Origin: a virus
Taxonomy: Duplodnaviria > Heunggongvirae > Uroviricota > Caudoviricetes
Virus record (IMG/VR): IMGVR_UViG_2802429249_000003
Location: 1 to 22,963 of that record
Direction: 5' to 3' (one strand)
DNA: 22,963 nucleotides
The position numbers are program-made. Position 1 is the first letter of the stretch. Every line of letters starts with the position of its first letter. Shown here one piece after another: positions 15,001 to 18,000 of the stretch.

Positions 15001-18000
15001 CGTTAGTCTGTATTAATTAACGAGGAATAGGCCAAGTGACTTTTCTCTGTCTCTTTGAACTATATTCATATTCAATTGATTACATTGAAGTGCTAATGTG
15101 AGTTCGTCAAACAAGTAGCTCAAGGAATAGGTCATGCAGGGAAGCGAAAACAAACAAAATCTGGACGTACTGGATCCTGTGCAGTTGGTACGTATCGAAG
15201 CGGTACACCGGGGATTCCTTTACCAGCACCTTTACGCCGTAGGCTGCTTACTTTTGGCGCAGGGGGCTGCTATGGACTCAGTCACTGTCGAGCTTGATGA
15301 GGATATTGAGCTGAACTCCAAACAGGAGCGTATCTACGTTCAGGTTAAAACCCGCTCAAAACCTATCATACCCAGTGATGTGTCAGGGGCTCTGGAGCGA
15401 TTTGCAAAGCTAAGAAATGAGCACACTGCGGCAAACCGCGAAGGGGTGGCTTCTTTTGTGATAATCGCAAACCAGGCGCCCGGTCCGCTGCTTCAGAAGA
15501 TGATTGAGGATAAAAAGCTTCCTCCTGATGTTCTTATTGTCTGGCCCCAGTCGACTGCTGGACGCCACCCGGCACTTCCGCCCGCATGGGGTACTCTGGC
15601 TGATGCGGCCACATGGTGTATCGCAGAAGCAGAAAAGCTGAATTTCTCACTATTGTCCCCAGAATCCCTGATTTGGAAGCTAGCCGGGCTGGTTCAGCTT
15701 GCCGCCACCGGAGGCGATACCAATGGACAGCATGCGTTTTTCACGAAAGGACTTCCTGCACTGTTTGAACAGTTGATCGTTCAGCTACAGGACTTTCCTG
15801 CACCTCCCGCGCTGTACCGCCCACAAAAAGAAGAACCTTCTCTCGCATCTGGCGAGCGGATCCGCATCCTTTGTGGGCTCTCAGGTGCAGGCAAGACATC
15901 TTGGGCCGCACAGGCCGCATTGCACTCCACTGAACTTTGCGCTTATTACGACACCGGTGACCTTCCTGGCCCTGCTCTGGCCAGTACGCTGGTGCGCGAG
16001 ATGGCTGCCAGATTTACAGCCCGTGACCAAGACGGTTTGCGCAGGATTTTGCTCCCCGGTGCCAGTGGTTTCGAGGCTCTTAGGACTTTTGATACCTACC
16101 TGAAAGAGCAAGGTGCCACCCTGCTGCTGGTTCTGGATAACGCCCATCGTGTGCCTGCGGAAAATCTGCGGGATGTTCTGAATGCAACTACACACATTCG
16201 CTTTGTGCTGCTGTGCCAGCCCCACGAAAACGTTCGCGAACTGGAGGCCATGATGGGACTACAGCGCGAGGGCCTGCAGGGATGGGATCTCGATACGGTG
16301 GCAGTTGTTGTAAACGACATCGGAGGATTTGCCACTGCTAAGGGGTACGAGCAGCTACGGACTTACACTGGTGGCCTTCCTCTGTATGTTGAGAGCGCCG
16401 CAAAAATCGCCGTTTCTGATTATGAGCGTAGTGTCGATTCCCTGTGCGCTGAACTCCAGCAACAAACCCATACTGCGGAAACCGCCCAGGAAATTATTCT
16501 GTCACGTGTATTTCAGGGATTTGAATCACTACTTCAGAGCGCGTTGGCATTGTTCAGTCTCTCTGACGTAGGGCTGAACCGTGAAGAGATTTCCACGCTC
16601 CTGATCAATTCGCTGAACATTTCACCAGGCAGTGCGGCTTCTTTAATTAAGAAAATGCGCGCCACTGGCACCATTGAAATTTATGGAGACCAGACCCTGA
16701 AGGTACATGATGCTGTCAGGGCGCTAGGACTGCAACATCTGGAACTGATGGATCAGGGTATCTCGAACAAAGCGCTACTAGCGTTGAAAGACCTTTTAGT
16801 CGAAAGTCTTCATAAAACCCGCAATACAACACGACTATCGTTGTTGACTCAACTTTATATTAAGCTCAATGATGTCATGACGCTGATCGCACTCTCAGGC
16901 GAAGAAATGTTTTATGAGATGGGCGTTACGGTCGACATTCTTGCAAGCCTGGAGCGTGCCGCAACATCGGACTCATTGGAACCTGTTCATAAATTCTGGG
17001 CATTGGATGGCCTTGTTTTCGCTGAACTTAAAGACGGGATATCTGACCAGATTGCTCAGAGGTTAAACACCATGGGGGCTTTACTTTCTGAGCACACGTT
17101 CGGCTATCAAGAAGAGATGGCCTATGCAATGAAACGAATGTTATTTTCGGCAGAAAGCAATGATGCGCGAGAAGTTCAAAGACTGGCACAGGAAGCCCGC
17201 CCCAAACTCCCAGATGAAGAACACGAACGCATCTTTGACTACAACCATGCCATTGCACTCTGGAGACTAAAAAAGCTCAAGGATGCCGAAACATTAAGCT
17301 GTAATGTTATACAAGGGTACTATTCTTTATTTGGTATCACCCCTGCTGATGTCATAGGAAAAAATGCCGACGCATTGTGGAAAATTATTAATCATTCCGA
17401 AAACATGCAGGAACACTTTAAGCATATGGCTGATGCGCTGGAGTTACTGGCCAGAATTCGTGATGCGCGGGGAAAACTGTCACCACTACTGCGTATTCAT
17501 TCGATGAAGTTCTACAATCTGGCCATGGCCCCGGAGTCCATGGTCAGGGTGGGCCAGGATCTGGCGGATGAGTTTGTCGCGATAAAGGATTACGACGGCG
17601 CCAGAGAAGTCATGGAGCAACATGTCCTGCCGGTTGCCAATGAGGCAGGTCTAGTACATCGACTGATTCAGGTCCGAAGCCAGTACGCAGTCATACTGGC
17701 ACTATCGGGTCAGCACAAAGCAGCTGATGCCGAAATGCAGCGCCTTGCCCCCTATATTGAAGGCCTCACAGGTGTGCAGCTTCAAGAAATCCAAAATCAA
17801 TCAAATTACATCGCACAGCTTGCCCATAAAGCAACAAAGACTAGATTAACCGAGTTTTTTGGTGCTGTCGGCCGGAATGAACAATGCCCCTGTGGTTCGG
17901 GAAGAAAGTACAAAAAATGTCACGGTGCCTGAGTCTTGGTACGACCATGCAAGCCTGACACATTCAGCCCGCATACGGCTTTCTAGCTAACAGCCAGAAT

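Follow-up and report, generated by a model that had tools for sequence, protein, structure and literature searches.

Among the genes on the 22,963-nt stretch of viral DNA analysed here (IMG/VR record IMGVR_UViG_2802429249_000003, Caudoviricetes; hereafter the window, meaning this whole stretch), one encodes a 932-amino acid (aa) protein that joins a Cap4-like nuclease, a STAND nucleoside triphosphatase (NTPase) and a TPR-like sensor to a short metal-binding tail. Judged from its sequence, the tail (residues 912-931) is a true SecA-type metal-binding knuckle and a member of the SEC-C family. It is under strong purifying selection, and it is also dispensable in several lineages, having been lost cleanly at least four times. 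We tentatively suggest that the knuckle may act as an accessory tag that docks the protein on a polyanionic host partner, of which the exit region of the ribosome is the most likely; as a whole, this statement is possible rather than probable.

The complete open reading frame (ORF) runs from 15134 to 17932 (+), and protein numbering follows it throughout. A first-pass annotation of the DNA had placed a SEC-C type motif at 17879-17929, the extreme C-terminus. This span corresponds exactly to residues E916-A932, which are followed by a TGA stop codon at 17930-17932, but the conserved unit begins four residues earlier, opening with V912-G-R-N, and comprises aa 912-931 (17867-17926 (+)). The hidden Markov model search on which that annotation had staked the motif found it: PF02810 (Pfam SEC-C) matches aa 914-931 at 38.4 bits (E 1.1e-9, profile positions 1-18 of 19), well over the gathering cutoff of 20.4 bits. 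In a phmmer search of PDB sequences, SecA zinc-binding peptides rank first (1SX0, E 1.2e-5; 1OZB, E 1.6e-5), and 16 of 20 residues are identical between the tail and the E. coli SecA metal-binding peptide 1SX0. A family-profile search of PDB again returned SecA peptides, plus YchJ-C (9L6B) and 2I9W. The pattern C-x-C-x8-C-[HC] is expected from the protein's own composition at 4.4e-5 per protein; it occurred in a proportion of 3.5e-5 of 200,000 shuffled sequences, and never within their last 20 residues.

The set of metal ligands is complete (C918, C920, C929 and H930; Cys3His). The pattern C-x-C-x8-C-[H/C], together with a serine and an aromatic residue, defines SecA-like domains (bioRxiv 10.1101/613315), and both of the latter hallmarks are present, as S922 (SecA S889) and Y926 (SecA Y893). 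The SecA-like domains of SecA, YecA and YchJ co-purify with iron, and that of SecA prefers iron over zinc in competition assays, a preference for which the conserved serine is required (10.1101/613315). Because such domains co-purify with and prefer iron, the knuckle metal may by analogy be iron as well as zinc, and the label "zinc-binding" may be too narrow.

The body of the protein was resolved into three domains and a linker. At the N-terminus is a Cap4/LmuA/HamA-like PD-(D/E)xK nuclease domain (aa ~15-215; 15176-15778 (+)), recognised via Pfam, PADLOC and Foldseek, with the motif E53-x-D55-E56-D57 ... Q70-x-K72 (15290-15349 (+)). The Pfam Cap4_nuclease match (aa 25-89) scores 25.0 bits, marginally under its cutoff of 26.2, and PADLOC identified LmuA (E 3.1e-6) and, weakly, HamA (0.0098) in the same region. 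The STAND P-loop NTPase core (aa 240-364; 15851-16225 (+)) matches AAA_22 at 34.9 bits versus a cutoff of 27, and AAA_16 as well; Walker A is G248-LSGAGKT-255 (15875-15898 (+)) and Walker B is D335. The all-helical TPR-like C-terminal sensor (aa ~448-890; 16475-17803 (+)) was assigned from the secondary structure of a model and from Foldseek. A hypervariable spacer or linker, defined by column entropy (aa 891-911; 17804-17866 (+)), connects the last sensor helix to the knuckle. In an alignment extending down to 27% identity, D55, E56, D57, Q70 and K72 are invariant, as are the Walker residues G251, G253, K254 and D335. Because the nuclease motif and the Walker A and B residues are invariant, we predict a catalytically competent Cap4-nuclease/STAND/TPR protein.

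The AlphaFold2 model, built from 41 homologues, has a mean predicted local distance difference test (pLDDT) score of 80.4. It consists of an alpha/beta N-terminal domain, a P-loop core and a wholly helical C-terminal half, with ~460 helical residues C-terminal to the NTPase, a large sensor of at least 400 aa. The model ends in a long helix (880-909), across the linker pLDDT falls, and the tail that follows is of low confidence (~47-57), with no confident docking of the knuckle predicted on the protein body. The best Foldseek match in PDB is the STAND-TPR protein 6MFV (E 3e-13, target-normalised TM 0.62), followed by 8DGC, Avs3 bound to terminase (E 6.8e-13); further matches include plant NLR resistosomes, Hachiman 8ZUE, Cap4 6WAN and TPR subunits of APC/C. 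Antiviral STAND (Avs) sensors encoded by a single gene, Avs3 and Avs7 among them, have this architecture (PMC13581612). At the sequence level, PDB searches returned no match to any solved Avs structure, PADLOC matched the 932-aa protein to neither AVAST nor any other system-level model, and accession searches turned up no named Avs family. SecA Pfam domains are also lacking from the 932-aa protein; SecA chains align only with its last ~20-55 residues.

Conservation of the tail was assessed at three scales. A word-indexed search found 947 relatives, and the tail was scored in the best 120, 108 of which carry the motif; most of these proteins are exactly 932 aa long. Mean column entropy is 0.50 bits across the knuckle (912-931), 2.59 across the linker (891-911), and 0.97-1.41 elsewhere in the body, placing the knuckle among the 20 most conserved of 913 20-residue windows. 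In the rows that bear the tail, C918, P919, C920, S922, G923, K925, K927 and C929 are invariant and position 926 is Y or F. Conservation thus extends to residues that are not ligands (R914, N915, S922, K925, K927, K928 and Y/F926). An exhaustive search of 1.84 billion representatives yielded 779 relatives (292 at E<=1e-30), which retain the full architecture down to ~29% identity. The knuckle is present in 66 of the 103 full-length representatives, preceded by a linker of 20-51 aa in which Arg, Pro, Ala and Ser are abundant.

At the third scale, 79 genome loci were read through to the stop codon for tail state. Sixty have the knuckle, seven of them as a betaproteobacterial C-x-C-x8-C-x-C variant. 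The ancestral state is tail present, with three independent losses; a fourth loss was found in one enterobacterial member. The tail-less lineages keep intact catalytic motifs. In the two tail-less genes that were checked downstream of the stop (P0113 and P0042), there is no SEC-C remnant in any frame, ruling out recent pseudogenisation of their tails. A Fitch count on a neighbour-joining tree of metagenomic representatives gave 27 changes of tail state; we set this number aside as inflated, given a weakly resolved tree and ORFs of which some are perhaps truncated.

Tail-bearing members occur in Alpha-, Beta- and Gammaproteobacteria, Desulfobacterota and Sporomusa, and in metagenome-assembled genomes of Cyanobacteriota and Obscuribacterales. 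Some tail-less members end in Lys/Arg-rich tails, with net charges of +12 and +15. Long Lys/Arg-rich C-termini, such as KRRAKDEHKRQRKARKRQRK, are seen in the knuckle-less P0163, P0242 and P0254, where the net charge after the last helix is +6 to +15. An unrelated extra domain of ~120-150 aa is carried by P0214 and P0242. The variant with a shifted fourth ligand (C-x-C-x8-C-x-C, then x4-5) was recorded in L025, L026, L028, L030, L032, L033, L056 and P0123, a mainly betaproteobacterial clade.

A variety of other C-terminal features were noted in the family. Many alphaproteobacterial members, tail-bearing and tail-less alike, have 'PPPPQW-x-(M/I/F)P' in the linker region (C-termini of this type: L035, L037, L046-L050, L052, L054, L055, L059, L063, L066-L069, L075-L077 and L081). 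The counterpart in Sporomusa is 'NGPPKW', and the window's protein is without the motif, which may be a second short linear motif. In one tail-less clade, whose named members are mostly alphaproteobacterial, a gene 'X' (~150 aa) lies convergent to the STAND gene in 15 of 16 members (L047, L049, L050, L052, L054, L055, L059, L063, L066-L069, L076, L077 and L081), with 15-20 nt between its 3' end and the stop codon of that gene. At 37-42% identity, X resembles a 175-aa extension fused in frame behind an internal SEC-C motif in the family member P0144 (1103 aa). Neither X nor the other C-terminal extensions match Pfam, and all 176 X homologues are annotated as hypothetical; the STAND gene and X may constitute a two-gene variant of the system. 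Two genomes have two family copies with identical last 45 residues: L006/L007 in Pseudomonas sp. MPB23 and L084/L085 in Sphingopyxis sp. H053, the latter pair on one 142-kb contig.

What such a knuckle does is best documented for SecA, whose C-terminal tail is composed of a poorly conserved flexible linker and a highly conserved metal-binding domain (10.1101/613315; PMC6620043). The metal-binding domain binds SecB, and when fused to SUMO without the rest of SecA it co-sediments with 70S ribosomes; a SUMO-tail fusion crosslinks to the exit-tunnel protein uL23 and no longer co-sediments once its metal-binding cysteines are modified (PMC6620043). The first-pass annotation described the SecA motif as a binder of SecB and ribosomes, in agreement with this work. 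In 52 species without SecB, SecA retains the domain (PMC6620043). The conformation of SecA is also influenced by the tail, and autoinhibition is relieved once the knuckle has bound SecB or ribosomes (10.1101/613315; PMC6620043). It has been suggested that SecA-like domains could regulate interaction with the ribosome under stress (10.1101/613315). The tail peptide of the window's protein additionally matches an NCBIfam methionyl aminopeptidase family with an N-terminal SEC-C, and E. coli methionyl aminopeptidase is reported to bind ribosomes (10.1101/613315).

SEC-C knuckles have also been found in proteins linked to defence. The only PADLOC models with the knuckle are seven CBASS E2 or E1-E2 models and the candidate PDC-S12 (E 4.5e-7 to 0.04). 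The lactococcal protein Rugutis, with an N-terminal SEC-C, has measured anti-phage activity (PMC11381338), and in the literature searched it is the only defence protein noted to have the motif. No paper in that literature discusses SEC-C on a STAND protein, and a 2026 survey of ~90 Avs sensor clusters never mentions SEC-C, SecA or zinc (PMC13581612). The tail had been called unexpected on a putative defence NTPase, which overstates the case: RefSeq names the E. coli orthologue "SEC-C metal-binding domain-containing protein", the tail is ancestral in a large family, and other defence-linked proteins have SEC-C. The functions suggested in the first-pass annotation, as a module for localisation or for binding a partner or nucleic acids, or as a sensor of translation status, are all compatible with the comparative pattern, which does not discriminate among them. 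Since public annotation already records the motif, its presence as such is not new. We found no description in the literature searched of an Avs-type receptor with a SecA-type docking knuckle, or of the comparative pattern.

Potentially accounting for the tail, we propose the following mechanism. By analogy with Avs3 and Avs7, the TPR sensor would bind a phage protein, the NTPase would then drive oligomerisation, and the assembled Cap4 domains would cut DNA, aborting the infection. The knuckle may tether the idle sensor to a polyanionic host partner through an exposed basic surface formed by R914, K925, K927 and K928. The most likely partner would be the 70S ribosome, at a site close to the exit tunnel to which the SecA domain binds on its own; alternatives would be SecB (in Proteobacteria), DNA or the membrane. 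A sensor docked in this way would meet newly made and still unassembled phage proteins. The tag would raise sensitivity or tune activation, and sensing, assembly and cleavage would proceed without need of it.

Docking is suggested because the SecA-like layout of linker plus knuckle is reproduced, because the basic residues that are not ligands are conserved, and because Lys/Arg-rich tails stand in for the knuckle in some relatives. It is further suggested by the behaviour of known Avs sensors, which bind freshly synthesised phage monomers and can draw on translation factors; Avs7 takes EF-Tu into its complex and recognises capsid monomers that have just been made (PMC13581612). A tag that is not specific to SecB is indicated because tail-bearing members occur in Sporomusa, Cyanobacteriota and Obscuribacterales, groups expected to lack SecB. 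The tag would be accessory rather than essential because the tail has been lost in at least four lineages with intact catalytic motifs.

Several points weigh against docking at the ribosome. Binding of ribosomes or SecB has been demonstrated for the SecA tail only, and anti-phage activity of the family was not found in the literature searched. Outside the ligands, the conserved residues are those common to every SEC-C motif, and their conservation may stem from the fold instead of a common partner. Basic knuckles and Lys/Arg tails suit binding of DNA or acidic lipids equally well, and the effector is a DNA nuclease. The length of the gammaproteobacterial proteins, approximately fixed at 932 aa, and a spacer that is helical in the model hint that the geometry is defined, perhaps by a contact within the protein, and that the tether is not free. 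The low pLDDT of the predicted tail is weak evidence for flexibility.

An unlikely but still credible alternative to docking at the ribosome is that the basic knuckle, or the Lys/Arg-rich tail, binds DNA non-specifically, so that the idle protein stays attached to the nucleoid or to phage DNA, or so that substrate is fed to the assembled Cap4 nuclease. In favour of this, the active site of the effector, a domain of dsDNA-nuclease type, is intact, the tail has a strongly basic character and Lys/Arg-rich tails are found in some relatives, and YchJ, with two SEC-C motifs, has been reported as a DNA-binding transcription factor (PMC13377102). However, there are nuclease-competent lineages without the tail, and CBASS E2 has SEC-C and is not annotated as a nuclease. 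The tail and the nuclease also lie at opposite ends of the polypeptide, and in the published structures of Avs3 and Avs7 the sensors are reportedly peripheral. In the solved Avs tetramers the Cap4 domains form the tetramerisation core (PMC13581612), and DNA binding by YchJ has been ascribed to a positively charged surface rather than to the C-terminal knuckle (PMC13377102).

The hint of a defined geometry bears on another interpretation, to which we give slightly less credence: linker and knuckle may fold back, SecA-like, as an autoinhibitory latch that keeps the sensor or nuclease off, or the knuckle may guard a host factor. Activation would follow when SecB or the ribosome engages the knuckle, or when that engagement is lost as a phage perturbs chaperones or translation. 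This would resemble SecA, with its tail-modulated conformation and its autoinhibition relieved by SecB or ribosome binding, and a latch is compatible with the fixed 932-aa length in the gammaproteobacterial clade, which suggests a geometric constraint. Contacts between the sensor C-lobe and Cap4 autoinhibit apo Avs7 (PMC13581612), so a C-terminal appendage would be well placed for such a role, and bNACHT25 senses perturbation of the host chaperone DnaJ. A linker that is hypervariable in sequence and ranges from 20 to 51 aa in the wider family would, however, be odd for a specific intramolecular latch. No confident docking of the low-pLDDT tail is predicted, and the tail-less lineages persist and so are evidently not lethally auto-active.

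Quite improbably, the knuckle could serve without any external partner, as a structural cap that stabilises the last TPR helix or as an aid to oligomerisation at contacts between protomers. Small metal knuckles are often structural staples, and the residues conserved here are those generic to the SEC-C fold. Against this stand the variable Pro/Arg/Ser-rich linker of 20-51 aa between the last helix and the knuckle, the repeated loss of the tail from proteins that keep the remainder, and the interchangeable position of the knuckle, which is internal in P0144 and N-terminal in Rugutis and in the methionyl aminopeptidase family. The least probable explanation is a metal or redox sensor in which the Cys3His site, perhaps occupied by iron in the cell, responds to oxidative stress or scarce metal in the course of infection and adjusts activity: the iron preference and suggested stress regulation of SecA-like domains (10.1101/613315) and the redox response reported for YchJ (PMC13377102) favour it, but the YchJ switch has been placed at Cys149 rather than at the SEC-C ligands (PMC13377102), characterised Avs-type proteins are triggered by direct binding of phage proteins (PMC13581612), and sequence does not separate sensing from a purely structural metal site.

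The genomic setting of the gene is that of a self-contained mobile cassette in typical defence-cargo slots, since only the segment ~14960-17956 is common to otherwise unrelated contexts. In the window, the STAND gene is the first cargo gene, directly after a P4/CP4-57-type tyrosine integrase (13587-14864 (+); Pfam Arm-DNA-bind_3, Phage_int_M and Phage_integrase) of an ssrA island. Positions 13393-22963 are 100% identical to locus L100, where the island lies directly after smpB in the gene order grpE-nadK-recN-bamE-ratA-smpB; smpB-ssrA is the insertion site used by CP4-57-type islands. Similarity to other copies of the cassette begins at 14969 (E. coli prophage copies) or 14960 (locus L101), and the flanks are otherwise unrelated. 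The upstream part of the single-gene cassette (14960-15133 (+)) presumably contains its own promoter and ribosome-binding site; a sigma-70 consensus scan of this part identified no convincing promoter, and a promoter and terminator scan around the cassette was uninformative. ARAGORN found no tRNA or tmRNA attachment site in the window. At the left junction of the island, 13410-13498 (+) gave the one Rfam match, to the IsrM small RNA and far below threshold (34 bits versus a gathering value of 376), and is probably a conserved island-end sequence rather than a small RNA gene.

With the gene alone as query, 16 of 5,426 complete E. coli genomes contain it, at 93.4-93.6% nucleotide identity; WP_023352600.1 and WP_000264572.1 are E. 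coli orthologues of the protein. Of the ~500 E. coli genomes matched by a 6-kb query, the remainder reflect flanking sequence, presumably the integrase, and not the gene. The E. coli copies are single-gene inserts in a lambdoid prophage at tRNA-Ser, where they separate DUF977 from hokD and lie between hokD and the replication genes. In E. coli NZ_OZ546984.1 (361511-365557), an ISEc52 insertion splits the gene into two annotated proteins, a 'dsDNA nuclease domain-containing protein' and a 'SEC-C metal-binding domain-containing protein'. A 98%-identical relative follows the same type of integrase and adjoins a type I restriction-modification system, and a tail-less Pseudomonas relative sits among AbiJ and Abi_C genes. 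The E. coli-type gene is on nine IMG/VR viral contigs (92-93% identity), and INPHARED phage records gave no megablast match. No conserved partner gene was found, the flanks being wholly different between the compared contexts, and no LmuB SMC-like ATPase or HamB helicase neighbours the gene in the window or the other contexts examined. Overall, Pfam, PADLOC, Foldseek and locus comparison bear out the earlier description of the carrier as a STAND-type NTPase with a defence-type nuclease in a mobile-island setting.

Other parts of the window also merit description. Positions 1-13392 form the early-region arm of a lambdoid prophage, with a Q antiterminator, DnaB, a DnaC-like protein, Rha/Ash proteins, an S24 CI-type repressor (7323-8054) and an integrase (12061-13260). 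The tandem arrangement of a lambdoid prophage and a CP4-57-type island at smpB-ssrA was seen in the window and in a single further assembly; in other assemblies the island occupies this site without the prophage. Against all 5,426 E. coli genomes the chromosomal flank shows 93% identity, which marks the host as an Escherichia species distinct from E. coli. The segment 10264-11491, which separates the immunity region of the lambdoid prophage from its integrase, encodes an SPFH/Band-7 protein (275 aa) and a DUF5406 protein. Such a position is typical for accessory genes, and a further accessory or defence function could be encoded there. Downstream of the STAND gene, the cargo at 18000-21000 is unannotated and has 31-43% GC, versus ~50% for the STAND gene. 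There, the ORFs at 18036-18338 (100 aa) and 20018-20947 (-, 309 aa) have no matches. The ORF at 18380-19270 (296 aa) matches only phrog_8991, whose function is not known; in some assemblies that are near-identical elsewhere it is broken into two.

Understanding of how NLR-like sensors of bacteria locate their targets in a crowded cell is at an early stage, and the 2026 finding of EF-Tu built into the active complex of Avs7 indicates that host factors can belong to the receptor. If the knuckle does dock, the protein would be an NLR-like sensor parked at the ribosomal exit tunnel or on SecB, inspecting phage proteins as they are made, and a second, independent Avs-type receptor that co-opts host translation or chaperone machinery, after EF-Tu in Avs7. 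The appendage of 20 residues is small and separable, and its counterpart in SecA binds ribosomes and SecB. Given natural truncations and electrostatic substitutes, spatial coupling of immune sensors to translation is directly testable, and the tail may carry information on where in the cell immune sensors work. If the tail is irrelevant or purely structural, the finding is a correctly annotated domain on an uncharacterised Avs-like protein. More broadly, SEC-C knuckles could be portable docking tags for ribosomes or chaperones that immune proteins (the STAND family, CBASS E2, PDC-S12 and Rugutis) have recruited repeatedly, a generalisation that, together with the parked sensor, we consider doubtful at present.

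Compared with known systems, the window's protein is neither SecA, Lamassu nor Hachiman. It shares with the SecA tail (PDB 1SX0, 1OZB and 1TM6) the CxCx8CH ligands, the serine, the aromatic residue, the basic surface and an extreme C-terminal place behind a poorly conserved linker. Only the tail resembles SecA, however; the protein is without the DEAD-box motor, the preprotein crosslinking domain and the helical scaffold, and demonstrated binding of SecB and ribosomes belongs to the SecA tail alone. The same terminal knuckle occurs in YecA and YchJ (UPF0149, UPF0225), the NCBIfam models PRK05590, PRK01617 and PRK10396, the PBPRA1643 SWIM/SEC-C family, 9L6B and 2I9W. These YecA/YchJ-type models match the tail peptide at E 1e-9 to 1e-5, all under the family cutoff because only the ~20-aa tail matches small SEC-C proteins; their bodies are unrelated to that of the STAND protein. 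CBASS E2 and E1-E2, PDC-S12 and Rugutis likewise have the knuckle as a short terminal or near-terminal module, but on unrelated bodies, and in none of them does it have an assigned role. Lamassu LmuA and Hachiman HamA are alike in the nuclease domain only (by sequence, and structurally for 8ZUE), and the LmuB/SMC or HamB helicase gene of those systems does not accompany the STAND gene.

The NTPase and TPR body finds its best structural match in 6MFV, an archaeal or bacterial STAND-TPR protein that at 641 residues is too short for an N-terminal nuclease plus such a body. This protein was not among the sequence-level SEC-C matches in the PDB searches, in which its tail was not looked at specifically. 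From Avs3, the protein differs in length (932 aa, versus 2028 aa for the 8DGC chain) and in the lack of a sequence-level match, and from both Avs3 and Avs7 in having a SEC-C tail. What it has in common with Avs3 and Avs7 is an N-terminal Cap4-type nuclease, a STAND NTPase and a large helical sensor, all encoded by a single gene on mobile elements.

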